IMG/VR virus record: IMGVR_UViG_3300021437_000070
Span: 1 to 28,401 of that record
DNA: 28,401 nucleotides
Direction: 5' to 3' (one strand)
From: a virus
Taxonomy: Duplodnaviria; Caudoviricetes
In this document: in pieces, positions 3,766 through 28,401 of the stretch
How the letters are laid out: every line of letters starts with the position of its first letter
Position numbering within the stretch: position 1 is the first letter of the stretch
Position numbers and translations under genes: made by a program
Notes under the pieces: model-generated
Seen by the model: only the letters and a program-made list of their open reading frames with translations
What the model was told of the DNA's origin: nothing
The model's database searches: none

Positions 3766-4079
3766 AACTCGTCAACATGAAGAGCGACACCGACGATGGC
3801 TACGCCACCGTCGGCTCACCCGCAAGCTACCCTTATGGCTTGTGCCTGTACCTGAGCGAGGACCAGTGCGAAGCGCTGGGCATCAGCAAAGCGCTGAGGC
3901 CCGGAACGCAGTTGACGATCAGCGCAAAGGCGATCGTCACGAGCGCGACCGAGAGCCTGGAGCGTGACGGCGACGACAAGGGCAACGACGTGAGCCTCAG
4001 CGTGCAGATCACCGACCTGGGCGTCCAGGCCAACGGTGTCGTGCGCAACGCGGCCGCGGAGCTGTACGGCGCCAGCTGA
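3762..4079 (+). CDS. Capsid staple protein, epsilon15 gp10-like
   Basis: MKLVNMK...YPYGLCLYL...LG...VSLSVQITDLG matches the gp10 pattern. ATGA overlap. Confidence 0.8.
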   Translation: MKLVNMKSDTDDGYATVGSPASYPYGLCLYLSEDQCEALGISKALRPGTQLTISAKAIVTSATESLERDGDDKGNDVSLSVQITDLGVQANGVVRNAAAELYGAS

Positions 4080-4082
4080 CCC

Positions 4083-4117
4083 CCGGTATGCGTCCCGCGG
4101 GGAGCCCGCCGTAGACT
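4083..4117 (+). promoter_or_regulatory. Putative late promoter: CCGGTATGCG-N19-TAGACT
   Basis: Intergenic. The same 10-mer with the same 19-nt spacing to a -10-like hexamer recurs at 20972-21006. Confidence 0.6.
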
Positions 4118-4124
4118 CTTGCGC

Positions 4125-4463
4125 GTGACGCACGATCCAGTTGACTTAGCCCTTCTCGAAGCGCGACAAACCGAGGCCGATGAAAAGGCCCGGATCGACC
4201 GCCTGACCGAGATCGGCGACTTCAAGTGGATCGTGTCGAATAAGCGGGGTCGCCGGTTCGTCTGGCGGCTTCTCGAACAGGCCGGCGTTTTCAGACTGTC
4301 CTTCACCCCCGGTGACCATTCCCTGACTGCCTTCAACGAAGGTCGCAGGAACTTCGGTCTCCAGGTCTGGGCCATGATCCAAGAGCACGCCCCCGAGAGC
4401 TATGCGCTGATGCTGAGCGAACGAAATGTCCGACCCAACGACCGCACCGACACCGCCGGCTGA
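4125..4463 (+). CDS. Bbp19-like protein (conserved gene before the scaffold)
   Basis: D.KW......GRRFVWRLL..AGVF..SF.....TAFNEGRRN.GL motif. GTG 4125 chosen as start (TTG 4119 is the alternative). Confidence 0.85.
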   Translation: MTHDPVDLALLEARQTEADEKARIDRLTEIGDFKWIVSNKRGRRFVWRLLEQAGVFRLSFTPGDHSLTAFNEGRRNFGLQVWAMIQEHAPESYALMLSERNVRPNDRTDTAG

Positions 4464-5061
4464 ACCGGCCGCGAGCCCGACGCCTGCTGCACCCGCGGCA
4501 GCTCCTGCCGCGCCTGTTGCAAGCCCCGCGCCGACCGCACCCGCGGCCGAGCCGGTTGCGCCGCCTGCCGCCGAACCGGCGCCGCCCCCGGGCGCGCCGG
4601 AAAAGTACGAGTTCAAGGCGCCCGAAGGCCAGGGGTTCAACGACACGGTCATTGCCAAGTTCGGCGATACGGCCCGCGCGCTGAACCTGCCGCAGGACGC
4701 CGCGCAGCGGATTCTCGACGAGGTGGCGCCCGCCATCCGCGAGAGCAACCTGCAAGCGCTCACCACCTTCTACGCCGACATCGGCGGCATGCCGGACACC
4801 TGGCAGGCCACGATCGAGGCGGACAAGGAACTCGGCGGCCCGAAGTTGCCCGAGAACCTGGCCGTCGCCAAGAAGGCCCTGGATCTTGGCGGCCCCGGCC
4901 TGGTGGCGGTGCTCGGCAAGACTGGCCTGGGCAACCACCCGGACCTGGTGCGGTGGGCGTTCAAGATCGGCAAAGCGCTCAGCGAAGAGAAATTCGTCTC
5001 GGGTGGCGGCGGCAGCTCTGCTGGCTCCGACGCCGCAAGCAAACTCTACGGCTCCAAGTAG
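4426..5061 (+). CDS. Capsid scaffolding protein
   Basis: Pro/Ala-rich N-terminus, APEKYEFK, GLGNHP.LVR..KIGK.LSE. Directly upstream of the major capsid gene. Confidence 0.85.
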   Translation: MSDPTTAPTPPAEPAASPTPAAPAAAPAAPVASPAPTAPAAEPVAPPAAEPAPPPGAPEKYEFKAPEGQGFNDTVIAKFGDTARALNLPQDAAQRILDEVAPAIRESNLQALTTFYADIGGMPDTWQATIEADKELGGPKLPENLAVAKKALDLGGPGLVAVLGKTGLGNHPDLVRWAFKIGKALSEEKFVSGGGGSSAGSDAASKLYGSK

Positions 5062-10617: not shown

Positions 10618-12377
10618 TGGCCCGCGTTCCACTGATGGTGGTGCCCCAGGCCGAGCAGTCACAACTGCCCGGCCCTATGGCGGACGACCGCGCGCCGCTG
10701 CGGCGCATGGACGGTGGCGGTCAAGAGGTGCAGCAGCTCGGGCAGAGCCTGATGCGTGCCGGCACGGACTACGACCGCCTCGCCGCGCAGCAGCAGGCGC
10801 TGACCAACGAATCCACGGTCAAGGACAGCACCGCGCAGCTGCACGACATGGTGTCGAAGCTCATGTACGACCCCGAGACGGGGTACATGAACGCCAAGGG
10901 CAAGAACGCTCTCGGGGCTGCCGAGGGTGGCCGGTTCGACGACGTGCACGACGCCCTGCAGAACGCAGTCCGGGATCTCGGCGGCAAGCTGACGAACCCC
11001 GAGCAGCAACGTATGTTCGGCCAGGTTGCCCAGCAGGTCACCGGCGCGGCGGTCAACGCCATGCGCCAGCACGCCTCACAGCAGAACACGGTCTACGCAA
11101 TGGACTCGTCGCGGGCGCGAGGCGACGCCGCCGGCGAATCCGCAGTGCTCGCTTTCAACCCGATGCCCGGGGCCGACAACAGCCTCTACCAGCAGGGCGT
11201 TGCGGTGCGCACCGCCGAGCTGCGCGACCAAGCGCGCCTGGCCGGGCTCGACGCCGACAGCGCGGCCGGCTTTGTCAAGGCAGGCTTGGCGAAGACCTAC
11301 ACCTCGGTCCTCGACCACCTGCTGGCCAACGGCCAGACGAAGGCCGCCAACGACTACTTCGGCAGCGTGCGCGACCAGCTGCCCTCGCAGGTGGCCGACA
11401 AGATCACCGCTGCGCTGACCGCGGGCCGGGCCAAGGACGACGGCATCAACTTGGCGCTGACCCTGGGGCAGAAGTTCGGCACGCTCGCACAGCAGGAAGC
11501 CGAGCTGAACAAGCGCAAACTGGCGGGCGATGTCGACGCCGACACCTACACCGTCGCGCAAGCCCAGCTGCGCGCCGGCGACGCCATGCGCAAGAGCGCA
11601 CAGGCCGACGCCGAAAAGCAGTTCCTTGGGTCGATCTGGGACGCGCACCGGCAGAACCCCGCGATGACGGTTGCAAACCTGACCCCGCAGCAGTTGGCGT
11701 TCGTGAAGGCCAGCAACCTGGGGCCCCACGTCGACAACATCCTGCGGCCGGACACCGCCCCGAAGATCGACGACATCGAGACCGTCGTGCAGCTGCGTCA
11801 CATGGCGGCTGACGACCCGGTTGGCTTCGTCCACTTGGACTTGCACAAGTTCGGGCTGAACCCGTCCAGCCTTTTGGACTTGTCGGCAAAGCAGGACGGC
11901 ATCACCAAGAAGGGCGCCATTCAGCTGTCCGTCGACAAGCTGATGAGCGGCGCGGTGCGCACCGCGGTCGGTGAGCTGAAAGTTGCCGGCGTCGACCCCG
12001 GCGCGAAGCCTGGAACCGACGCTGCGCAGAACTACGCCGACTTCCAGAACGCCGCGTTCAACGCCCTGGAGGATGAGGTGAAGGCGCGCCAGGCCTCGAA
12101 GCTCAAGCCGATGACCGACGCCGACGCGCGGGCGGTGGTGCTCGGCGTGGTGAAGAAAACCACGCTGGCCGGCACCGGCGTGCTCGGCTTCTTCCAGGAC
12201 GACGGCCCGGCCTACCAGGTGGTCAGCAAGATCCCCGCGGCCGACCGTGAGCAGATCACGCAAGCGCTGCGCGCCAAGGGCCGCGCGGTCACGCCGGCGG
12301 CGATCGTCGACCTTTACAACGCTGTGCGCGCGAAGCCGGCGGTCAAGCCTGCGACCGGCGCGCAAGGAAGTTGGTGA
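10617..12377 (+). CDS. Internal virion / ejection protein (gp15-like position)
   Basis: TGATG coupling, MARVP start, helical 586 aa, LMYDPETGY...KGKNA motif, position in the operon. Confidence 0.75.
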   Translation: MARVPLMVVPQAEQSQLPGPMADDRAPLRRMDGGGQEVQQLGQSLMRAGTDYDRLAAQQQALTNESTVKDSTAQLHDMVSKLMYDPETGYMNAKGKNALGAAEGGRFDDVHDALQNAVRDLGGKLTNPEQQRMFGQVAQQVTGAAVNAMRQHASQQNTVYAMDSSRARGDAAGESAVLAFNPMPGADNSLYQQGVAVRTAELRDQARLAGLDADSAAGFVKAGLAKTYTSVLDHLLANGQTKAANDYFGSVRDQLPSQVADKITAALTAGRAKDDGINLALTLGQKFGTLAQQEAELNKRKLAGDVDADTYTVAQAQLRAGDAMRKSAQADAEKQFLGSIWDAHRQNPAMTVANLTPQQLAFVKASNLGPHVDNILRPDTAPKIDDIETVVQLRHMAADDPVGFVHLDLHKFGLNPSSLLDLSAKQDGITKKGAIQLSVDKLMSGAVRTAVGELKVAGVDPGAKPGTDAAQNYADFQNAAFNALEDEVKARQASKLKPMTDADARAVVLGVVKKTTLAGTGVLGFFQDDGPAYQVVSKIPAADREQITQALRAKGRAVTPAAIVDLYNAVRAKPAVKPATGAQGSW

Positions 12378-15300
12378 TGAGCGGCAACCCGTATCTCGAC
12401 ACCCTGGAAGCGCAAGAGGAAGACGGCACAACGCCGGTTCCGCGCGCCGCGGGCAACCCCTACCTGGCCACGCTCAACCAACAGAGCCAGAACACCCGCG
12501 CGCAGGCCGCGCTGGCGATCAGCACGCAGCTCGACCAGAACCCCGACAAGGCCTCGCAGAACACGCAGCTGGCCCGGCGGTTCAAGGTGCCGCCGGCGGT
12601 GGTCGACCAGTGGCCGGAAGAGTTCCGCACACGCGCTGTCACCGACGCCGCGCGCGAAGCGCTGGGCGACGCGCCCACGCTGTCGCGCACGCTGGCGGCG
12701 GACCCGCGCGCTGCGGCGAACATCCACGACGACGTGCCGATGACCGTCGCCACCGAGAAGACCGCCCGCAGCCTGCCGCAACGTGCGCTGGACTACGTCT
12801 TCAGCACGCACGGCATCACCGACGACGCGTCGGAGAATCTGGCGTCATTCGCTGCGTCGGTGGTGCGTTCGGCTGCCGCTACGGTCGAGCCCGTCGCTGT
12901 CCACTACCCGGCGCTCGCCGCCGGCGCGCTGACGCTGCCGGTCGACTGGATGCTGGGCACAGACCTTGCTTCGTACCCGTTCACCCTGGCCTACCGTCAG
13001 GGCCTGCTGGCCGATCAGGAGAAGGCGCGCGCTGCGGCCGACAAGACTTTCAGCGGCAAGCTGGCCAGCGCCACCGGCGGCACGCTGGGCGTGCTCGGCG
13101 AAGCCATGGCGACCGGGGGCGAGGCCACCGCGGCGCGCCTCGGCGCCGGCACCTGGGAAGCGCTGTGGCCCGCCATTCAGCACGGCATCCGCTCGATGCT
13201 GGTGCCGTCGGCTGCAGCCAGTGCCGAGACCGCACAGCAGGTGCGGGACGCCGGCGGCACGCCGGGGCAAGCTGTCGGCGCTGGCTTGGCGTCCTACGCC
13301 TCGAACACCCTGGGCGGCATCGTGCCCTTCGCCAAGGCCGGCGCGCCGCTGCTCAGCCGGATCGCGTCAGGCGCAGCGATGGGCCCGATCACCGGCGAGG
13401 TGTCGCGCCAGCTGATGAACGCGACGTTGCCCGAGAGCATGCAGACGGCGCGCCCCGGCGCTGACGACCTGGCGATTCAGGCCATCACGGGCGGCGTGTT
13501 CGGCGGCCTGGTTGGTGGCCACGACGAGGCGACGCAAAGCCGCGTCATGCGCGAGTACGTGCGAAGCACCTACGACGCGGCGAACGCCCACGACGCTCTG
13601 CAGGCCGAGGCCACGCTGCGCTCGCTGAGCGCGATCGTTCAGGAAGGCAAGCTGCGCAGCCGCGACATGGACAGCTTCAAGCAGCTGCTGACCGATGTCG
13701 GCGACGACGCGAACATCGACGGGGTCTGGATAGACGCGCGCAAGCTCACCGAAGTGCTCGACGCGGCCGGCCTGGAGGGCGAGCACCTGCGCGAGGTGCT
13801 GCCGAAGGTGGCCAGCCAGATGCGTGAGGCGCTGCAGACCGAAGGCCAGGTGCGCATCGGCCTTGACGACTACGGCACGCACATCATGGGCAGCACCGTC
13901 GAAGATGCGCTGATCCCGCACCTGCGCGTCAAGGAAGACGGGCCGACGATCGGCGAGGCGCAGAAGTACGCCGGCGGTCAGCGCGAGCGCATGGCCGGCG
14001 AGGCGGCGCGCATCCTGGCCGAGAAAGCGGCCGACGAGGACTTCGCGGCCTCGCGCCAGAAGGTGCTCGACGACACCCAGGCGCAGCTGGCCGCGACCGG
14101 GCGCTTTCCGCCCGACGTCGCCAAGCTGTACGCGAACCTGCACGCCGACTGGTTCACCGTGTTGGGCGCCGAGCTGGGGCTGAAGCCCCACGAGGCGCGC
14201 GAGCGCTACGCAGTCAACGTGGCGGGCGAACGAGGCACCGGCGCCTCGGTCATGGACCAGCCCGGCGCGGTGAGCGTCGAGGGCTACCACTTCAGCCATG
14301 AGGACCGGCCAACGCTGTCGACCGCGGCCTACGGCACGGGGCTGCGCGGCAGCGCGCGCGACGAGATCCTGAACCACCCCGATCAGCGGTTGAGGCAGCG
14401 CCTGTCGTTCTACTTCGACAAGGGCACCGGTGTGAGGCCCGAGGATGGTGTTGGTGGCCGGGCGCACCGCGTCCAGCTGGACAACATCTACGACGCCGAC
14501 GCCGACCCGCTGAAGCTGCGCAGCGGCGACGCGCGGGCGTTCGAATCCAAGCTGCTGGATCTCGGGTACAAGGGCTACCTCAACCGCATGGAGGGCACGC
14601 AGCCCGGCCAGGTGATTGCCCTCGGGCCCCAGACCTTCCGCCCCGAGCTGCTGGGCGCGCAGTCCAAGATCGAGGGCGGTCAGCGCGTGCCGGCGCTGCC
14701 GGCCGAAGCACCCACCTGGCGCACCGAGGCCAGCGGTTCGCCCGAGGCGATGCAGGCCAGGCTGGAGCGCATGAAGGCGAACCCGGCCTGGGCCGGCTAT
14801 GACCTGCGCGTCGAGGGCCGCGAGCTGCAATCGCTGAAGCGCGGGCCGGTCGACGAGGACCGCAACGCCCCGCCGCCCGCGGTGTTCCAGCAACATGCCG
14901 ACCAGAAAGGACTGACAGATGGACCTGCCGCCGCCCCCGGAGCTGAAGGACTTCCCAGATCAGGAGAGCTTCCAGGAGGCGCGGGGGTTCTGGCAGGCGA
15001 GGGTCGGCCGGATCAAGGGGCTGGCCGCGAGCCCGACGGCAGTCTCCGCGGCCTCCCCCGTGACGTCGGCGGCTACCGTGCGAGCGCCTTCCCGGAAGCC
15101 CAGCGCGTAGCGCGCGACTACATGGCGAAGGCCGGGCTCCCCTACGAGCCGCCGGCCACCTACGCCAAGGTCGACGTGCCGCGCGCGAAGCGCATCGCGC
15201 AGGCCTTCGAGGCGATGAAGCATGACCCGGAGAACCCCGAGGTCAAGGCGGCCTACGCCAAGATGGTCGAAGAGGTAACCGCGCAGTACCAGGCGGCGTT

Positions 15301-18300
15301 GGACGCCGGCCTCAAAGTCGAGTTCGTCACTGGCGACGACCCCTACAAGGGCAACCCCCGGGCGATGACCGAGGACGTGCGGCAGAACAACCATATGTGG
15401 GTGTTCAGCACGCGCGACGGGTTTGGCACCGACGCCACCTTCGACCCCGCCGGGAACCCCCTGTTGGCAGAGACCGCGCACGAGATCAGCGGCCAGAAGG
15501 CCCTGGCCAACGATCTGTTCCGCGTCGTGCACGACTACTTCGGCCACGTCAAGGAAGGTGTCGGGTTCCGTGCCGCTGGGGAGGAAAACGCCTGGCGGGC
15601 CCACATGGCGATGTTCTCGCCCCTGGCGCGCAAGGCCGCTACCACCGAGACCCGCGGCCAGAACTCGTGGCTGAACTACGGCCCCCACGGCGAAACGAAC
15701 CGAACAGCCAAGGTCGAGGACACGCACTTCGCCGACCAGAAGATCGGCTTGCTGCCGGACTGGGTGGTCAACGAGGGGCGCACAGACGCGCCGCAAGACG
15801 CCCACATCAATGTCGGCATGGACGTGCGGCCGGACTTGCGAGACCAGCCGCTGAAGGTCGACGAGATCACCGACGCGCTGCGCGCCGCCGGCGTGCACGT
15901 GCTTGACTCGGCCGTCCACCAGTCCGATACCGAGAAAACCTTCGTCGGCCACCTGGACCGGCCGCTCACGCCAGAAGAGGGCCACGCCCTGAGCGTGGCG
16001 CTGAAGCAGGAAGCCATCGCCCAGAAGACCGGCGACACCGGCGCGTTGTACGGGCCCGAGGCCTCGAAGTGGGGTGGCTACAACCCGGACTACTTCCTGA
16101 TGCCGGACGGGCGGCGTGCCAGCGACACCACGTTTGCGCAGGCCGATCTGTTCCCGGAAGATCTTGCTGACAAGAACACGACCGTTGAGACTTCGCGCGT
16201 CGTTTCGTCAAAGGGTGCGACAGAACGCGGCACCAACACCAACAGTGCCGGGCAGCGCATAGCGTCGACCGTTCAGGGACTGCGCAACTTCTGGCGTTGG
16301 TTCGGCAACAGCGATGCTGTTGACGCTGACGGCGCCCCCCTGGTCCTGTACCACTCGACGAACGCGGACACCGCCACGTTGGAAGCGAACCGCAAGACCA
16401 CCAACAATTACGGCATTCTGGGTGACGTCGATGTCTCGCGTGCGGCGGTCTTCCTGACGCCTGACCGCGCCTTCTCGCAGGAGTACCTGCGCAGCGGCGA
16501 AGGCCAGAACGTAATGCCCGTGTACGCGCGCATGGAGTATCCGTTCGATCTTCGCAAGGGGCTTAGCGAAACCCAAGAGCAGGAGCTTGAAGCGGCCGGC
16601 GTCAATACCCGTTACATACACAACATCGGGCATCATTGGGAGCTGTTCGACAACGCGGACGACGGCACGAACCTCTTCGTGGACACGTTAAAGCGCCTCG
16701 GTTACGACGGCGCGCTCTTCAGAGAAGCCGATCAGGCCGGCGCGGTGCACGACACCTATGCGGTGTTCAGTGGCGAACAGGTCAAGAGCGCTACAGGCAA
16801 CCGAGGCACCTTTGACGCCAGCGCCGCTGTCCACAACCAAGACACCCCTGGCGGGGGCTCCGTCGGCACTTCGCCGCCCGGCAGCCCCGACCCTCTGAAG
16901 CCCGGCGCCGGCGCCCGCGGCCAGATCAGCTTCGCCGACGACATCACCTCGGCGCCGAGCACCATCAGCTTGCTGAAGAACGCCGACCTGTCGACGTTCC
17001 TGCACGAGACCGGTCACTTCTTCCTTCAGGTCTACGCCGACGTGGCCGGCCGGCCCGACGCGCCGGCGAAGATCGCCGCCGACATGCAGCACCTGCTGGA
17101 CTGGTTCGGTGTCAAGGACGTCGCCACTTGGCAGGCAATGACCGCCGACCAGCAGCGCGAGTTCCACGAGCGCTTCGCCCGCGGCTTCGAGGCCTACCTG
17201 ATGGGCGGCGAAGCACCGAGCCTGGCCCAGCAGTCGATGTTCCAGCGGTTCGCCTCCTGGCTGACGCAGGTCTACCGCTCGCTGGCCGGGCTCAACGTCC
17301 AGCTGACGCCCGAGGTGCGCGGCGTCATGGACCGCATGTTGGCGTCCGAGAATGCCATCAAGGAGGCCGAGGCCGCGCGCGGCCTGCGCTCGCTCTTCGA
17401 GACCCGGCCCGAAGGCATGACCGACGACGCCTGGGCGAAGTACCAGACGGACGCGCTGGCGGCCACCGGCGCGGCCGTGAGCGACTTGCAGCGTCGGTCG
17501 ATCAAGGATATGCAGTGGCTGGCCAACGCAAAGGCCGGCGCGATGTCCGTGCTGCAGCGCGAGGCGCGCGAGAAGCGCAAGGCCATCACCGCCGAGGTGA
17601 CCGCCGAAGTCGACGCGCTGCCGGCCTTCGCCGCCAAGGCCTACCTTGACCGCGCCACCGATCCGTTGGGCGACTACAAGGCGGCGATGGCCGCCTGGCG
17701 CGAGCAGCGCAACGCCGTCGCCAAGGACGAGCGGCCGGCGTGGCTGGCCGCGCACCCCGAGCCGGAGAAGCCGGCATCCGATGTTCCGGCGTGGGAGGCC
17801 CGCCGCGAGGCGGAGCAGGCCCGTGCGCGCGACGAAGAGAAGGCCCGGGTAGGTGAGGGGCTGACCGGGATTGCGAAGGGCCAGGCGCTGGCCAAAGCTG
17901 CGCGCGAGATCGACAACAACGTCGAACGCACGATGATCGCCTGGGACCGCGCGAACCCGCGCCCGACGGTCGAGCGCCCGAAGGTTGACCTGGAGGTGAC
18001 CGCCGACCGCTTCGGGTTCAACTCGGCCGACGAAATGCTGCAGGCTATCAAGGACGCCGGCAGCCGCAAGGACGTCATCGAAGCCATGACCGACCAGCGC
18101 ATGCTGGAGCGGCATGGCGAGCTGGTCGACCCCGTCAGCATCGAGCGTGCGGCCGAGGCCGCCATCCACAACGACGTCCGCGCCCGCGTCCTGGCGCGCG
18201 AGCTGAACGCGCTGGCCAAAGCCACCGGCAGCCCGCGCTTGCTTGCCAAGGCTGCCGAAGAGGCCGCGCAGGCAGCGATCGGCGCCAAGGTCATCAAGGA

Positions 18301-20971
18301 CTTGCGCGCCAAGCAGTACGGCGTGGCCGAAGGCAAAGCCGGCCGCCTGGCCATGGAGGCCTTCAAGAAAGGCGACACCGAGACCGCCGCAATCCAGAAG
18401 CGCGCCCAGCTGCTGAACAACGCCCTGATGAAGGAAGCCTTGGCCGCCGCCGACGCGGTGCGTAAGGGTCTTACCTACCAGGGCAAGTTCGACCGCGCCA
18501 GCGTGCGCGAGAACCTGGACGGCGAGTTCCTGGAGCAGATCGACCGCCTGCGCTCACTCGTCGACTTCCGGCGCAACGCGCCGGCGCAGGACCGGCAGCT
18601 GCGGTCGCTGCTGGAGTTCGGTCAGGCGCTGCGGGCGCAGGGCTACGAGCCCCAGGTGCCGGACTGGCTGGCTGGGCTGACGCAGCGTACACGCTACGAC
18701 GCGCTGACCGTCGACCAGTTCCGTGGCGTCATCGACGCCATGCGGTCGCTGGAGCACATCGCCCGCGACCGCCAGCGGGTGCGCCTGGGCGCCGAGCGTG
18801 CGACGGTGCGCGATGTGGTCGACAACCAGTTGCTGCCGCGCCTGGAGCAGCGCGGCGAGGCCTTCAGCAAGGTCGACCTGCTCGATACCCCGCAGGCCAA
18901 GGTCGACGGCTTCTGGAAGGCCTTCACCCACTGGATGGGCGTCAAGGCGCGGCTGATCCACTCGGACCTGCTGGGCGCCGACTACCGCTTCAACAAGTAC
19001 GACCTGCACGACCTGCAAGGCCCGTTCCGCCAGCTGATCCTCGACCGCTTCCTGGAGGCGAACTACCGCAAGGTGGACCTGACGAAAGCGGTCAGCGACC
19101 GGGCCGGCGCCGTCGGCGACGCCCTCGGCAAGGACTGGCAGCGCAGCCTCTACGATGTGCTGCCGAACCGCACGCTGATGGACCCGGACCTGACCGTCGA
19201 AGGCAAGCCGCCGGTGCCGCTGAAGATGACCCGCGGCAAGCTGCTGGCCATCGCCAGGCACGTCGGCAACGAGAGCAACTTCGACAAGCTGGTCAAGGGC
19301 TGGGGCTGGCAGCCGGACACGGTGGTGGCCTATTTGAAGGAACACATGCGTGCCGCCGACTGGCAGGCCACACAGGCGCATTGGGACAGCTTCGACCCGC
19401 TGTGGAAAGAGACCGAAGCCATGGTGCGCCGCGTCGGCGGCGTGCCCCCGCCGAAGGTGCCGGCGCGTGAGTTCTCGGTGACCACCAAGGACGGCCAGAC
19501 GATCAACATGCGCGGCGGCTATTCGCCGATCGACTATGACCCGGTGCGCTCGAAGCTGAGCGTGCGCAAGGGGGAGTTCAGCCTCGACCCCAGCGACAAG
19601 GTGGAGAACATGCCGCGGTACACCGCGACGACCACCAGCAACGGCTCGTTGAACGCCCGCGCGCAGGGCTACACCGACCGGGTGTCGCTGGACTTCCATG
19701 GGGCCGACGCGCGCATCCGCGACACGATCCACGACCTGGCCTACCGCGAGGCGCTGATCGACGCCACGAAGATCATCAACGACAAGGCCTTCCGCGAGAA
19801 GTTCATGTCGGTCTACGGCCGCGAGGAATACCAGGCGCTGGTCGACTGGATGCGCAGCATCCGCGACACCAACGTCCAAGACCCGCGCACGCGCAACTTC
19901 GACAAGGCCATGCAGTACACCCGCCAGGGCGTGGTGCTGACGGGCATCGGCTACCGCGTCAGCACGGTCCTGAAGCACGGCGGCGCGGCCGCGCTGAAGA
20001 GCCTGGGCTACCTCGGCAACGCCGACGGCGCCGCGTTCTTCGCCGCGCGCCTGGGGCGGATGGGCTCGGGCCACGCCGGCGAAGACATCGCGGCAGCCAA
20101 AGAGAAGTTCGACGAGATCCGCGCGCGGGCGCTCCAGATGGACCGCGACTACAAGGAAGGCTCGCGCTCGATGTACGAGGCCGAGGGCCTGCTGCAGAAG
20201 AACGACCGTTTCGGCCACGCCATGGTGGCCTGGTCGGATCTGCTGTCGGCCGTGCCGACAGCCTGGGCCGCCTACGACCTGGCCACAACGAAGGGCATCC
20301 CCAAGAGCATGGGCGGCACTGGCGTGCCGATGGGCGAAGCCGAGGCGGTGCGCTACGCCAACAGCATCGTGCGCCAGGCCCACGGCAGCGCGCTGGAGGT
20401 GTCGCGCTCGAACTTTCTGCAGTCGCGCGGCGCCAAGGGGTTCTTCGGTGCGCTGTACGGGTTCATGAACAACACCTACGGCCAGATGGCCGATCTGCTG
20501 GACAAGAGCACCAGCAACGGTTTTTTCAGGAACAACCCCGCGGTAGCGGCCCGCCTCCTGGCCACGTTCCTGATCCCTGCGGTGTGGACCGAATGGCTCA
20601 AGGAGCAAGGGCCGGAAGACGGTCACACCTGGCTGGGCTGGCTCGGCAAGGCGCTAGTCGCCGAAGGCTCGGCCATGGTGCCGTTTGTGCGCGACGCCGT
20701 CAGCATCCTGGAGTACGGGCGCAACCCCAGCGTGGCGCCGGCGCAAGCCTTCAGCGACGTGCTGAATGCCGGCAAGGATCTGTGGAAGGAAGCCCACGGT
20801 GAGAGCACGCGGCTGATCCAGGATCTGTCGAACGCCATCGGTGAATGGGCCCACATCGCCGGCCTGGGCCAGCTCGGCCACATTCTGCAGCACATGCGCG
20901 ACGTCGCCAACGGCAAGAAAGAGCCGAGCGCCTGGCACGCTGTCGTCGGCGGCAAGGAAGAGCACAAGTAG
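12377..20971 (+). CDS. Giant ejection protein (Bbp10 / epsilon15 gp17-like scaffold) with inserted polyvalent enzyme modules
   Basis: About 2864 aa from ATG 12377 (TGATG overlap, AAGGAAG RBS). Hydrophobic N-terminal segments, ADLSTFLHETGHFF zincin motif, ART-PolyVal-like module, and GGY.PI.YD in the C-terminal half. Confidence 0.88.
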   Translation: MSGNPYLDTLEAQEEDGTTPVPRAAGNPYLATLNQQSQNTRAQAALAISTQLDQNPDKASQNTQLARRFKVPPAVVDQWPEEFRTRAVTDAAREALGDAPTLSRTLAADPRAAANIHDDVPMTVATEKTARSLPQRALDYVFSTHGITDDASENLASFAASVVRSAAATVEPVAVHYPALAAGALTLPVDWMLGTDLASYPFTLAYRQGLLADQEKARAAADKTFSGKLASATGGTLGVLGEAMATGGEATAARLGAGTWEALWPAIQHGIRSMLVPSAAASAETAQQVRDAGGTPGQAVGAGLASYASNTLGGIVPFAKAGAPLLSRIASGAAMGPITGEVSRQLMNATLPESMQTARPGADDLAIQAITGGVFGGLVGGHDEATQSRVMREYVRSTYDAANAHDALQAEATLRSLSAIVQEGKLRSRDMDSFKQLLTDVGDDANIDGVWIDARKLTEVLDAAGLEGEHLREVLPKVASQMREALQTEGQVRIGLDDYGTHIMGSTVEDALIPHLRVKEDGPTIGEAQKYAGGQRERMAGEAARILAEKAADEDFAASRQKVLDDTQAQLAATGRFPPDVAKLYANLHADWFTVLGAELGLKPHEARERYAVNVAGERGTGASVMDQPGAVSVEGYHFSHEDRPTLSTAAYGTGLRGSARDEILNHPDQRLRQRLSFYFDKGTGVRPEDGVGGRAHRVQLDNIYDADADPLKLRSGDARAFESKLLDLGYKGYLNRMEGTQPGQVIALGPQTFRPELLGAQSKIEGGQRVPALPAEAPTWRTEASGSPEAMQARLERMKANPAWAGYDLRVEGRELQSLKRGPVDEDRNAPPPAVFQQHADQKGLTDGPAAAPGAEGLPRSGELPGGAGVLAGEGRPDQGAGREPDGSLRGLPRDVGGYRASAFPEAQRVARDYMAKAGLPYEPPATYAKVDVPRAKRIAQAFEAMKHDPENPEVKAAYAKMVEEVTAQYQAALDAGLKVEFVTGDDPYKGNPRAMTEDVRQNNHMWVFSTRDGFGTDATFDPAGNPLLAETAHEISGQKALANDLFRVVHDYFGHVKEGVGFRAAGEENAWRAHMAMFSPLARKAATTETRGQNSWLNYGPHGETNRTAKVEDTHFADQKIGLLPDWVVNEGRTDAPQDAHINVGMDVRPDLRDQPLKVDEITDALRAAGVHVLDSAVHQSDTEKTFVGHLDRPLTPEEGHALSVALKQEAIAQKTGDTGALYGPEASKWGGYNPDYFLMPDGRRASDTTFAQADLFPEDLADKNTTVETSRVVSSKGATERGTNTNSAGQRIASTVQGLRNFWRWFGNSDAVDADGAPLVLYHSTNADTATLEANRKTTNNYGILGDVDVSRAAVFLTPDRAFSQEYLRSGEGQNVMPVYARMEYPFDLRKGLSETQEQELEAAGVNTRYIHNIGHHWELFDNADDGTNLFVDTLKRLGYDGALFREADQAGAVHDTYAVFSGEQVKSATGNRGTFDASAAVHNQDTPGGGSVGTSPPGSPDPLKPGAGARGQISFADDITSAPSTISLLKNADLSTFLHETGHFFLQVYADVAGRPDAPAKIAADMQHLLDWFGVKDVATWQAMTADQQREFHERFARGFEAYLMGGEAPSLAQQSMFQRFASWLTQVYRSLAGLNVQLTPEVRGVMDRMLASENAIKEAEAARGLRSLFETRPEGMTDDAWAKYQTDALAATGAAVSDLQRRSIKDMQWLANAKAGAMSVLQREAREKRKAITAEVTAEVDALPAFAAKAYLDRATDPLGDYKAAMAAWREQRNAVAKDERPAWLAAHPEPEKPASDVPAWEARREAEQARARDEEKARVGEGLTGIAKGQALAKAAREIDNNVERTMIAWDRANPRPTVERPKVDLEVTADRFGFNSADEMLQAIKDAGSRKDVIEAMTDQRMLERHGELVDPVSIERAAEAAIHNDVRARVLARELNALAKATGSPRLLAKAAEEAAQAAIGAKVIKDLRAKQYGVAEGKAGRLAMEAFKKGDTETAAIQKRAQLLNNALMKEALAAADAVRKGLTYQGKFDRASVRENLDGEFLEQIDRLRSLVDFRRNAPAQDRQLRSLLEFGQALRAQGYEPQVPDWLAGLTQRTRYDALTVDQFRGVIDAMRSLEHIARDRQRVRLGAERATVRDVVDNQLLPRLEQRGEAFSKVDLLDTPQAKVDGFWKAFTHWMGVKARLIHSDLLGADYRFNKYDLHDLQGPFRQLILDRFLEANYRKVDLTKAVSDRAGAVGDALGKDWQRSLYDVLPNRTLMDPDLTVEGKPPVPLKMTRGKLLAIARHVGNESNFDKLVKGWGWQPDTVVAYLKEHMRAADWQATQAHWDSFDPLWKETEAMVRRVGGVPPPKVPAREFSVTTKDGQTINMRGGYSPIDYDPVRSKLSVRKGEFSLDPSDKVENMPRYTATTTSNGSLNARAQGYTDRVSLDFHGADARIRDTIHDLAYREALIDATKIINDKAFREKFMSVYGREEYQALVDWMRSIRDTNVQDPRTRNFDKAMQYTRQGVVLTGIGYRVSTVLKHGGAAALKSLGYLGNADGAAFFAARLGRMGSGHAGEDIAAAKEKFDEIRARALQMDRDYKEGSRSMYEAEGLLQKNDRFGHAMVAWSDLLSAVPTAWAAYDLATTKGIPKSMGGTGVPMGEAEAVRYANSIVRQAHGSALEVSRSNFLQSRGAKGFFGALYGFMNNTYGQMADLLDKSTSNGFFRNNPAVAARLLATFLIPAVWTEWLKEQGPEDGHTWLGWLGKALVAEGSAMVPFVRDAVSILEYGRNPSVAPAQAFSDVLNAGKDLWKEAHGESTRLIQDLSNAIGEWAHIAGLGQLGHILQHMRDVANGKKEPSAWHAVVGGKEEHK
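14919..15110 (+). CDS. Nested overprinted 63-aa ORF inside the giant gene
   Basis: AAAGGA RBS 7 nt before the ATG. The host frame here is a low-complexity G/P/A linker. Confidence 0.6.
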   Translation: MDLPPPPELKDFPDQESFQEARGFWQARVGRIKGLAASPTAVSAASPVTSAATVRAPSRKPSA

Positions 20972-23289: not shown

Positions 23290-23541
23290 ATGCCGAACTA
23301 CACGCAAGACGCCCCTCAACACCCCGCGCTGATCGACGCCAAGGTGGACATCGCGGTCCTGCAGAGCCAGTACAAGCTGCTGCAGGAAGAGATCGCAAGC
23401 ATGCGTGTCACCCTCGGGGAGGTGAAGGAACTGCTGTCGGAAGCGAAGGGCGGCTGGCGCACCGCCATGCTGATAGGCGGCGCCGGCGCCACCTTCGCCA
23501 CGATCGCATCATGGCTGGTGGCGCACGTCACGTTCAGGTAA
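23290..23541 (+). CDS. Coiled-coil plus single transmembrane protein, putative holin-like lysis protein
   Basis: AGGA RBS, heptad N-terminus, KGGW followed by a hydrophobic C-terminal helix. Position after the tailspike. Confidence 0.55.
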   Translation: MPNYTQDAPQHPALIDAKVDIAVLQSQYKLLQEEIASMRVTLGEVKELLSEAKGGWRTAMLIGGAGATFATIASWLVAHVTFR

Positions 23542-24286
23542 CCTCTTCGGCCCTCATGTCGACCCAGCGCTGAAGGCTGGCCATGGCCTCGCGCACATCG
23601 CGCGCGGCGTCTTTGCCCCCACGAGAGCCCGGCACCAACAGCTTTTTGATGGCGTGCTGCAAGCACGGGTCGGCCACCTCGAACATCAGCAGCACCCGGT
23701 AGACGTCGACCTCGGTGAAGGGGCAGGGCTTGAAGTAGTGGCTGAACGGCCGGGCCTTCTGTTCAGCTTGAACGCCGGCCGAAGCCGCCGCACCTTGCCG
23801 CGCAAACCCGCCGTCCGCGACCACCTGCACATCCGCACCTTCGAGCGGGTCAGGCGCCGGCCGCCGGTAGGCACCGAGCAGGCGTTCGCCTTGGGGGTCG
23901 GCCGCAATGTGGTTGTCCAGGCGCTTGGCGCCCGTCCACGGGTTGTACTTCCACACGGCATCAGGCCACCGGTAGAGGGCCGCGCGCCGGAGTTCACCGC
24001 CCACCAGTTCACGCCCATTCAAGGGGCTGTAGGTCAGCAGCGGCAGTTGCCCTGGGATGTCTTCAGGTTCTGCCGCCCGCATCGGCCCCCAGGCGTCGGA
24101 CCAGATCAGCAACCCATGGGGGTCGCTGCCGATGTCTTCCTGGTGTCGAGGCAAGCCCGTCCACGGGTTGTACTTCCACACGGCGTCGGGCCACCTGTAC
24201 CGGGCCGCGTCACAGCACCCGGTCAACAGCCTGTGTCCGTCCAGGGGGCCGTAGACCAGTGGCGGCTGCCCGTTGTTCTCGCTCAT
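23534..24286 (-). CDS. Hypothetical protein: two YNPWTG repeats plus a DUF3310-like C-terminal domain
   Basis: RWPDAVWKYNPWTG occurs twice. C-terminal HY...VDVYRVL..F.V.DPC.QHAIKKLL..G.RG.K...D..EA...L.R. ATGA coupling to the helicase. Confidence 0.7.
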   Translation of the reverse strand: MSENNGQPPLVYGPLDGHRLLTGCCDAARYRWPDAVWKYNPWTGLPRHQEDIGSDPHGLLIWSDAWGPMRAAEPEDIPGQLPLLTYSPLNGRELVGGELRRAALYRWPDAVWKYNPWTGAKRLDNHIAADPQGERLLGAYRRPAPDPLEGADVQVVADGGFARQGAAASAGVQAEQKARPFSHYFKPCPFTEVDVYRVLLMFEVADPCLQHAIKKLLVPGSRGGKDAARDVREAMASLQRWVDMRAEEVT

Positions 24287-26391: not shown

Positions 26392-26678
26392 GCCAGCAGC
26401 GCCTCGACGCTTTCGACGCTGTCGATGACCACGACGCGCTGGCCCATCGCGCGCATGCGGGCGTGCTCGCGCAACTGGTGCGGCTCCGGCGCGACGCCGG
26501 GGGCTTTCAACTCGACCCAGACGGACAGATGCCGGCCGCCCAGCTCGCCGGCGGTGGTGCGCGCCATCACCAAGCGATCCGGCGCGCCGTTGCGGCCCGG
26601 CCACTGGACCTTGCGCACCTCGCCGCCCAGCTCTTTGACGCGCTTGACGAGGTGCTTCTCGATGACGGATTCACGCAC
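26388..26678 (-). CDS. VRR-NUC domain nuclease
   Basis: GGAGG RBS then GTG. RES.IE..L.......GG...K...PG..G.PDR...VELKAPG...Q (PD-(D/E)xK). Confidence 0.92.
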   Translation of the reverse strand: MRESVIEKHLVKRVKELGGEVRKVQWPGRNGAPDRLVMARTTAGELGGRHLSVWVELKAPGVAPEPHQLREHARMRAMGQRVVVIDSVESVEALLA

Positions 26679-26751
26679 GGTAGTTCCTCCAGGGGCAGCG
26701 GTGGGCGAGGTGCCCTTCCTTGCCACAGTAGGTGCAGAACTTGCTTTCCAT
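26671..26751 (-). CDS. 26-aa CCHC zinc-knuckle microprotein (not in ORF track)
   Basis: AGGAG RBS then ATG. MESKFCTYCGKEGHLAHRCPWRNYRA has exact CX2CX4HX4C spacing. Confidence 0.75.
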   Translation of the reverse strand: MESKFCTYCGKEGHLAHRCPWRNYRA

Positions 26752-26780
26752 CGCTTTCTCCTAGGGTTTCAAGCGACTAG

Positions 26781-26797
26781 ATCTTAGCACATGCTAA
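26781..26797 (-). promoter_or_regulatory. Extended -10 promoter overlapped by a palindromic operator
   Basis: TTAGCA-ca-TGCTAA palindrome (26784-26797). The - strand reads TGcTAAGAT upstream of an AGGAG RBS in an AT-richer gap. Confidence 0.55.
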
Positions 26798-26917
26798 AGC
26801 GGCGTGCGTCTCGTCGGCGGCAGTTTTCCGCCCCGGTGACCACCTCCAGGTGGTCCGGGTTGATGCACCACTGCTCGCCGCAAAGCGCATCTGGATCTCG
26901 GTGGCGGTGTAGTTCAT
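26784..26917 (-). pseudogene. Internally deleted HNH endonuclease remnant
   Basis: Coupled start MNYTATEIQMR, then in another frame LCGEQWCINPDHLEVVTGAENCRRR...stop, with no in-frame start. Confidence 0.75.
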
Positions 26918-27108
26918 GGCGCCGGCGTGAAGTCAGAATCGGTCACGCAGTTGTGCTCGACACCTGGCGTCGAGCTGAAGAGAACCCACTTACCGCCCTG
27001 CTGGCGCCAGCGCACGTCGGTGGACCCGCAGCGCCTGCACTTGACGGGCCGACGCTCGCCACTGTCCAGGTCGGACGGATCGTAGTCGTATTCTTCCCAC
27101 ACGTTCAC
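26914..27108 (-). CDS. Small zinc-ribbon protein
   Basis: AAGGA RBS then GTG. CRRCG...W......W.L.......H.C. Confidence 0.75.
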   Translation of the reverse strand: MNVWEEYDYDPSDLDSGERRPVKCRRCGSTDVRWRQQGGKWVLFSSTPGVEHNCVTDSDFTPAP

Positions 27109-27111
27109 GGC

Positions 27112-27375
27112 TCAGTCCTTCCTGTAGCGGTAAGCCTCGTTCATCAGCACCAATTCGGCGGGCGTGAAGTCGCGGGCTGCGTACTTTGCTTCTGCGCACG
27201 GTCGGCAACTCGCCGCGCGTTTGTCCAAGTCAATGCACACCGCCCCGCATGTGAGGCAGGCGCCCATGTAGCGCCCCGGCGCGTAGCCGTAGGGCAGCAG
27301 GTGCTCCCACTCGCTGCGGGGCCTAACCCGGCGCTCAAGCGGAGCGCCAACGGCCTTGGTAAGTTCGCCGCTCAT
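27112..27375 (-). CDS. Cys4 zinc-finger protein starting inside the attC site
   Basis: AGGA RBS. GYAPG.Y...CLTC......DKRA..C..CA. C-terminus is identical to that of the polymerase. Confidence 0.8.
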   Translation of the reverse strand: MSGELTKAVGAPLERRVRPRSEWEHLLPYGYAPGRYMGACLTCGAVCIDLDKRAASCRPCAEAKYAARDFTPAELVLMNEAYRYRKD

Positions 27376-27424
27376 GTCCTATTCCTGCGCGGGCCGCTGG
27401 TGCCCGCTTAGCTCTGCGTTCACG
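27321..27424 (+). mobile_element. Integron attC-like recombination site (59-base element)
   Basis: R'' GCCTAAC, 5 nt, L'' GCTCAAGC ... L' GCTTAGC, 5 nt, GTT. A 21-bp imperfect stem with two extrahelical bases. Confidence 0.85.
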
Positions 27425-27426
27425 GT

Positions 27427-28401
27427 TCAATCCTTCCTGTAGCGGTAGGCCTCGAAGCCGGCGGCGGCCAGCGGAATGCCGGGGGCCCAGCTGGGGGCGC
27501 GGGCCATCAGCCCGGCCAACGTGTAGGCGCTGAAGTCCTCGCTGTCCGGCGCCTCGGTCAGAAGTTCGTCGTGCACGCTCAGCACGATCGCATAGCCGCT
27601 GTCCTCGATCAGCTGCATGTTCGCCGCCATGATGTCGCGGGCGAAGGCCTGGGTGCAGTTCTCGATGATCTTGCCGCCGTAGGTCTTGACCCTCTTCCAC
27701 TGCCTGGTGTACTGGTCGACGCCGAGGTAGCTGATCTGCCCGCTGTTGTCCACCTGCGGCTTGCAGTAGCACAGGTAGCGGCCCGACGGTAGGCGTAGGC
27801 GCAGCCAATCGCCGTCGACCCGGGCCCGCAGGTGCTCGCCGATGCTGAAGGTCTGGCCGGGCCGCTCGATGGCCTTGGTGACCGCGTCCTTCGCGGCAGC
27901 CCACAGCGCTTCGGTGTTCGGGTGCGCGTCGCGCCAGGCGCGCTTCAGCAGCTCGCATGCGATGTAGACGTGATCGGTCAGACCGAAGGTGCTGCGCTTT
28001 TTCTTTTTGACCCAGGCCAGGACGCCGGCGGCGTCGTCCAGCGCCTCGCGGCTGGCGGTGGCCCACACGGCGTCGGCCAGCTCGTCCAGGTCCATGTTGT
28101 AGACCGCGGCGAAGGTCAGGAACGCGGCCACGCCGCCCTCATAGCCGAGGCCCAGCTCCTGCACCTTGCCGATCTGGCGCTGGCTCTTGCCGACGGTCTC
28201 CGGTGCCACGTTGAAGGCGCGGGCGTAGGCCATCACGTACAGGTCGGGGCCCGCGCGCAGAGCCTTGCCGTCGGCGTCGTAGCCGGTGACGGTGTCGTAG
28301 TCCTTGAAGGCCTTCAGCTTCCAACGCTCGCCGGCCAGGTAGGCCAGCCCGCGGCCTTCGATGTTGGCCAGGTCGGCGACGACCAGCTTCTTGCCGGGCG
28401 G
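27427..28401 (-). CDS. Phage DNA polymerase, family A (C-terminal part; 5'-truncated)
   Basis: Frame is open to the window end. Motif A DLANIEGR, motif B RQIGKVQELGLGY, TYGGK..EN..QA.ARD, motif C VHDE. Confidence 0.96.
   Translation of the reverse strand, partial: PPGKKLVVADLANIEGRGLAYLAGERWKLKAFKDYDTVTGYDADGKALRAGPDLYVMAYARAFNVAPETVGKSQRQIGKVQELGLGYEGGVAAFLTFAAVYNMDLDELADAVWATASREALDDAAGVLAWVKKKKRSTFGLTDHVYIACELLKRAWRDAHPNTEALWAAAKDAVTKAIERPGQTFSIGEHLRARVDGDWLRLRLPSGRYLCYCKPQVDNSGQISYLGVDQYTRQWKRVKTYGGKIIENCTQAFARDIMAANMQLIEDSGYAIVLSVHDELLTEAPDSEDFSAYTLAGLMARAPSWAPGIPLAAAGFEAYRYRKD

Follow-up and report, generated by a model that had tools for sequence, protein, structure and literature searches.

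attC sites are already on record in bacteriophages. According to the available text of Qi et al. 2023 (PMC9892861), 17 phage attC clusters were collected, two or more sites being required for each; lone attC sites therefore fall outside that set. The same text reports that IntI1 recombined 5 of the 6 phage attC sites tested, that two PH101 sites were recombined by IntI1, and that P12002L attC1 was the one site failing in the assay. When the sequences are inspected for orientation, the TJE1 cassettes prove to be of the classical sense type. In P12002L, attC2 has the sense orientation, and the call for attC1 is opposite to the flanking genes. In PH101 (NC_029094.1 75919-77990, locus L283) four sites lie on one strand and the annotated genes on the other, the annotated starts being outside the sites. 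PH101 thus indicates that reversed phage cassettes with IntI1-active sites were already present in the Qi et al. data, unremarked, as the words antisense, opposite and reverse are absent from the main text (PMC9892861). Two of the four PH101 sites are nearly identical to each other. No paper on reversed phage cassettes starting inside an attC site was found, in a literature coverage that excluded most subscription journals.

The locus described here adds to these data a lone attC site, with a readable insertion scar, in a core replication operon, and in a phage group whose five checked records are free of such sites.

Genome setting

The window, that is the whole stretch of DNA analysed (28,401 nucleotides), is a linear viral record of 28.4 kb. 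With a completeness of about 66%, it lacks about a third of the genome. Its gene content includes head, tail, helicase, endonuclease and family A polymerase genes, the best named matches are to Bordetella phage BPP-1 and Burkholderia phage BcepC6B, and by these predicted products the phage is classed as a BPP-1-like podophage. Family and named phage matches identify the family A DNA polymerase gene at 27427..28401 on the minus strand; only its 3' part, cut by the contig end, is present, and its stop codon is at 27427-27429. The attC site and its gene sit in this minus-strand replication operon, 2 nt past the polymerase stop codon. On their other side lies a 64-aa zinc-ribbon-like gene (26914..27108, minus strand). 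In the 8 homolog loci carrying a relative of the latter, the gene directly follows the polymerase in 5, is separated from it by one gene in 2, and resides in another context in 1. Assorted other genes are found at the polymerase junction of 8 polymerase relatives, a set that leaves out L012 (38% identity). Accessory phage genes of this polymerase-nuclease-junction type are known as 'morons'.

Three other reading frames of the window deserve mention. A 26-codon ORF at 26671-26751 encodes a CCHC zinc knuckle scoring above the Pfam cut-off. A 2866-aa ORF (12371-20971) features two domains known from large polyvalent proteins of phages, ART-PolyVal (ADP-ribosyltransferase-like) and LPD22. A 250-aa ORF (23534-24286) contains an internal duplication (23930-23984 and 24155-24209; 55 nt, 91% identical, copies 225 bp apart), which repeats the YRWPDAVWKYNPWTG motif.

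Anatomy of the attC site

The attC site measures 104 nt (27321..27424, plus or top strand), and is recognized by its anatomy and by homology to bacterial and phage sites. The R'' box GCCTAAC, which fits RYYYAAC, is at 27321-27327, the loop at 27356-27391 and the R' triplet GTT at 27418-27420, all on the plus strand; the predicted IntI crossover falls between 27418 and 27419. L boxes are separated from R boxes by 5-nt spacers, within the 5-8 nt used to define attC sites. Sequence and alignment place the extrahelical bases at 27336 and 27343, corresponding to G16 and T23 on the bottom strand; counted from R'', positions 16 and 23 are those of the attCaadA7 numbering in the available text of PMC5027507. 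R' reads GTTCACG, hence R-box pairing with R'' is limited to the triplet. The full attC anatomy announced in a preliminary description of this DNA is thus present, each feature being where it had been placed. The same description noted an abrupt change to phage DNA after GTT, without the expected AGGC. The change is there; its use as proof of a breakpoint was rejected, as 31 of 133 bacterial sites have a non-AGGC ending too.

The folding energy of the site is not in excess of that of shuffled sequences (z -1.10 for the top strand, -0.67 for the bottom strand), and its identification as attC therefore rests on homology. The minimum-energy fold of the bottom strand is the recombinogenic hairpin, with a probability of 0.31; values for four bacterial sites, three of them linked to intI, range from 0.05 to 0.31. 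In 9 close phage sites 98.6% of cells are paired, and no two-sided (compensatory) change is seen. A structural finder developed for this work, which demands perfect L-box pairing, yielded one hit in the window versus 0.1 per shuffled window. No match was obtained in the Rfam library, which is not built for attC, and BLAST of the site against plasmids and named phages gave short partial matches only. Contigs of two sequencing runs from different studies, one of which may be the source sample, cross both junctions of the module without differences (X1, 26610-27468; X2, 26911-27675). Because they span both junctions, the module is not an assembly artefact. On the sequence evidence, the attC site is to be regarded as real.

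Related sites in bacteria

The left arm of the site was found in at least 162 bacterial-genome loci, mostly of Betaproteobacteria, in the 22 of 64 parts scanned. At least 133 distinct full sites among those loci also match the right arm, which was absent from the left-arm search pattern. A model made from 42 bacterial sites scores the window site at 50.2 bits (E 4.5e-14), the next hit reaching 11.3 bits; as the left arm had served to select the training sites, this score is partly circular, and the consensus structure of the model was poor. The identification made in the preliminary description is borne out by these homologies. Integron integrases (TIGR02249) above the curated cut-off were detected at 3 of 153 loci (L035, L041 and L059), about half of the 153 covering 300-nt flanks only. 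By the likeness of its arms, the window attC is assigned to a betaproteobacterial family found beside intI genes. Model R1, run on five related phage records, gave a best score of 15.5 bits, with no attC anatomy on inspection.

The cassette gene

The gene associated with the attC site (27112..27375, minus strand) is an ORF of 87 aa which has its ATG in the attC loop and its first 18 codons within attC. A predicted Shine-Dalgarno sequence, AGGA, is located in the loop at 27383..27386 (minus strand), 7 nt before the ATG, and the same layout is observed in 8 related phage sites. These coordinates agree with the earlier account of a reversed gene deriving ribosome site, ATG and N-terminus from attC. 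The 14-codon leader of that account corresponds to a frame (27379..27423, minus strand) that runs across the right arm and ends 3 nt before the ATG; the frame is present, but the start with which it opens is the duplicated one of the 64-aa gene. Its translation may possibly be coupled to that of the 87-aa gene. In L189, L203 and L213 the frame that corresponds to the window's leader belongs to an upstream gene extending across the right arm of attC, and in this layout attC can also supply a C-terminus and a stop codon.

The last 8 codons and the stop of the 87-aa gene are supplied by a copy of a repeat described below. As the repeat carries the polymerase 3' end, the 87-aa protein ends in the last eight residues of the polymerase. 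The closest homologs have a different C-terminus (3 of 3, and also P0004). The protein has four conserved cysteines, and is predicted to be a small zinc-binding protein of no named family; PHROG, NCBIfam and Pfam contain no family matching it, and atlas matches are unnamed. In a structure model made from 4 sequences (pLDDT 74.7) the first 14 residues are disordered, and a fold search with the model retrieved unnamed viral folds only, and nothing in the PDB.

The 38-nt repeat and the 315-bp insert

The attC site and its gene are bracketed by a 38-nt direct repeat, absent from the preliminary description, with copies 315 bp apart. The left copy (27102..27139, plus strand) duplicates the polymerase 3' end and stop together with the ribosome site (27116-27119) and start of the 64-aa gene. 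The right copy (27417..27454, plus strand) is the true polymerase 3' end plus the attC junction. The copies differ at 3 positions, two synonymous and one intergenic. Both start one base before a GTT (27103-27105 and 27418-27420), the right-hand GTT being the attC crossover triplet. The repeat thus begins one base ahead of G^TT, and its opposite end coincides with a 4-nt match.

Since relatives either join the polymerase to the 64-aa gene or hold other genes there, attC and the 87-aa gene constitute a real 315-bp insert between the two. The insert departs from a clean cassette: it lacks a G^TTAGGC end of its own, and the copy of the polymerase end stands in that place. A classical cassette has a far end G^TTRRRY complementary to R'', which the window insert lacks and which the homologous cassettes in L226, L227, L229, L234 and L236 possess; nor does a sense gene precede the attC site in the window. 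Promoters and terminators were searched in the interval 26600-27700 and none was found, so that the insert brings neither.

Empty-site alleles, which the preliminary description proposed to look for, did not turn up in the sets searched. The exact junction pattern had 0 hits in viral contigs, no joint skipping the 315 bp, as expected of an empty or excised allele, was present in runs X1-X5, where contigs drop rare variants, and insert-free relatives are distant. No RNA dataset including the locus was among those listed.

Run X1 contains three further records of this region. Records 6 and 7 (window 27420-27478) are related polymerase ends followed by other sequence devoid of attC; related phages lacking the insert thus co-occur in this run. 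Record 5 (window 27392-27436), a 151-nt contig with a depth of 3.7, has the same right arm and polymerase junction, and differs in the loop, where a GGAG and a start codon of its own are found. It is a possible second allele, and hints at an exchange of gene heads at this site, or could be an error.

Reversed cassettes in other viral contigs

A scan of viral contigs with the right arm yielded 43 loci. Eight distinct viral sites show near-identity to the window site, and different reversed genes begin at them; the largest arrays, L189 and L194, hold nine sites in 6 kb. With sites de-duplicated by exact sequence only, hence not fully independent, and with a bacterial set that is essentially one family, a reversed start plus Shine-Dalgarno was found by our finder in 34/49 long viral sites versus 3/199 bacterial ones, and a sense gene ending at the site in 32/73 viral versus 166/216 bacterial sites. 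The role of translation start unit, which had been attributed to the window attC, would accordingly to these predicted starts be general among phage sites of this family.

Homologs of the 87-aa protein were found at 57 loci, the window's own contig excluded, and 6 of them have an attC-encoded head. The remaining loci carry the domain without attC, which qualifies it as a promiscuous small domain. In L226, L227, L229, L234 and L236 another attC or its R box comes after the gene, and G^TT is the point at which neighbours switch.

Among 52 adjacent pairs in phage and metagenome arrays, R'' is complementary to the far end of its own cassette in 41, and to the other end in 20 (discordant pairs 24:3, p 2.5e-5 if independent; 13:1 in bacteria). 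Such agreement is expected of circular cassettes that cross over at G^TT. In L194 an identical cassette occurs twice on the reverse strand (1315-1761 and 4056-4503), from GTT to GTT, and travels with the attC holding its start. A crossover at R'' was rejected on this ground, the L194 gene moving with the attC in which it starts. Pairs sharing the attC and differing in the gene also exist, as L181 and L188. Near-identical attC sites fused in frame to unrelated gene bodies at R'' were noticed in L181, L188, L179, L176 and L189, and bear on how inverted cassettes are made.

Judged by sequence organization, shuffling at G^TT has left its footprint in phage arrays. Identity of the window site with related phage attC sites stops at GTT. 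No intI was found in the 10 array- or site-bearing viral records (9 incomplete, one complete). The window has one attC only, and the absence of intI noted at first extends to any tyrosine recombinase across the 28.4 kb of this partial genome; it is neither a complete integron nor a CALIN. The suggestion that the phage borrows a host integron integrase to acquire or shuffle genes hence finds its footprint in the arrays, but the window has a single site, for which IntI action is deduced.

Discussion

The reading that we favour, and hold to be fairly probable, is that host IntI inserted a phage cassette, in inverted orientation, at a secondary GWT site; a later microhomology crossover would then have restored the start of the neighbouring gene. 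The involvement of IntI is itself likely. The donor would be an inverted cassette from a pool of phage attC arrays, in which each attC holds the ribosome site, start and N-terminus of its own gene. Host IntI would recombine the folded bottom strand with a GTT spanning the first codons of the 64-aa gene, and this insertion would separate the latter from its ribosome site and start. A second crossover, not mediated by an integrase, would then take place at a 4-nt microhomology which the gene tail shares with the polymerase end in a relative that lacks the interruption; it would remove the far end of the cassette, duplicate 38 nt, and restore the translation signals of the neighbour, and for this restoration it may have been selected. 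As part of the replication operon, the 87-aa gene would now be expressed from it. Two steps are proposed, as the most economical account, because plain IntI insertion keeps the far end of the cassette, and cannot explain the 38-nt duplication.

In support of IntI, the target fits GWT at -1 to +2, the consensus of IntI secondary sites in the available text of 10.1101/2022.09.11.507474, a motif that is very common. In support of insertion, homologous genes exist elsewhere as complete cassettes. Several data weigh against. The hotspot CRGM reported in the same text at +6 to +9 is one base off, a match being present at +5 to +8 in the left copy only. Of 20 further loci in which a similar end of the gene precedes AACG, none carries attC there, and the 38-nt duplication is unique among 13 non-canonical array ends. 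Neither does pairing exceed that of shuffles, nor do the 9 close phage sites exhibit compensatory changes. P12002L attC1, the site that failed in the assay of Qi et al., is likewise called opposite to its flanking genes. At the GTT junction there is a 4-nt microhomology as well; the right half of attC and the target zone share only four of these, and for this reason the position of the junction favours IntI only a few-fold.

The same donor cassette could have been joined at both ends without IntI, by microhomology template switching or by a phage annealing recombinase acting on 4-nt matches, with attC carried along only as holder of the ribosome site and start. We regard this as rather unlikely, yet as the strongest of the alternatives. 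Matches of 4 nt are found at both repeat ends, one switch out and back 38 nt earlier would produce the duplication in one step, the polymerase junction receives many unrelated small genes without attC, and the 4-nt matches available in the zones defined here are just four. That the insert ends exactly at the IntI crossover argues for the integrase; so does the turnover of arrays of the same family at G^TT. Two parental alleles account for the three differences between the copies better than one template does, later drift being also possible.

It is improbable that the 315-bp unit is an active chimeric cassette, which IntI excises between the two G^TT points and re-inserts, giving filled and empty alleles and exchange of gene heads. 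A joint skipping the 315 bp is missing from runs X1-X5, with the proviso on rare variants given above; excision was notable in just 2 of 24 clones of the published study; the variant contig is single, with its depth of 3.7; and R-box pairing limited to the triplet is a further argument against such activity. A chance hairpin or an assembly chimera, to which the fold energy no better than shuffles and the missing Rfam match would be congenial, can practically be dismissed in view of the two-arm identity with 133 bacterial and 8 phage sites, the model score of 50.2 versus 11.3 bits for the next hit, and the contigs of two studies spanning the module without differences.

The proposed insertion by IntI followed by a microhomology crossover would have broader implications. 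Tentatively, and with odds that we see as unfavourable, phages may keep a pool of inverted cassettes in which attC is a plug-in translation start, and host IntI may spread these cassettes within arrays and into any GWT site in the core operons of unrelated phages. The window locus would be an example caught in the act, still excisable as a chimeric cassette, and inversion would silence phage genes behind the host integron promoter, and host cassettes in the phage. If so, phage and host cassette pools would share one enzyme, not expression. If host IntI placed the insert, integrons would be a route for moving genes between phages, and phage mosaicism would have a site-specific route in attC sites endowed with ribosome site and start that a host integrase can insert into a core phage operon. 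The locus bears on how small accessory genes come to be joined, in frame, to functional translation signals in phage genomes, and on the origin of integron cassettes. It provides a short, directly testable pair of substrates, the attC site and its apparent target.

Comparison with known systems

Among known systems, a close counterpart is provided by the attC sites and cassettes of sedentary chromosomal integrons of Betaproteobacteria (Rubrivivax and other Burkholderiales). Measured against the attC anatomy given in the available text of PMC5027507, R boxes, 5-nt spacers and L boxes are shared, as are G16 and T23, near-identical arms and the recombinogenic bottom-strand fold. The phage attC measures 104 nt and has an open loop, whereas the betaproteobacterial sites are mostly 129 nt with a long stem. 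The phage gene is reversed and starts in the attC loop, a layout featured by 3/199 of the long bacterial sites; a sense gene ends at the site in 166/216 bacterial sites, in contrast to the antisense gene of the window. Unlike chromosomal integrons, the window has no intI, attI or array.

Like the window, the CALINs of Qi et al. (PMC9892861) are phage attC sites without an integrase; the available text describes no insertion scar for them, whereas the window site has one. The attC x attG insertions reported in the available text of 10.1101/2022.09.11.507474 share with the proposed event a G^WT crossover outside an integron, and later imprecise rearrangements of the flanks. They were shown for bacterial chromosomes in E. 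coli, not for phage operons, and such a reaction yields no 38-nt duplication.

Variable small genes reside also at the polymerase-nuclease junction of other BPP-1-like podophages, where they make up the accessory genes. The junction accessory genes of the relatives examined have no attC; the window insert carries one.
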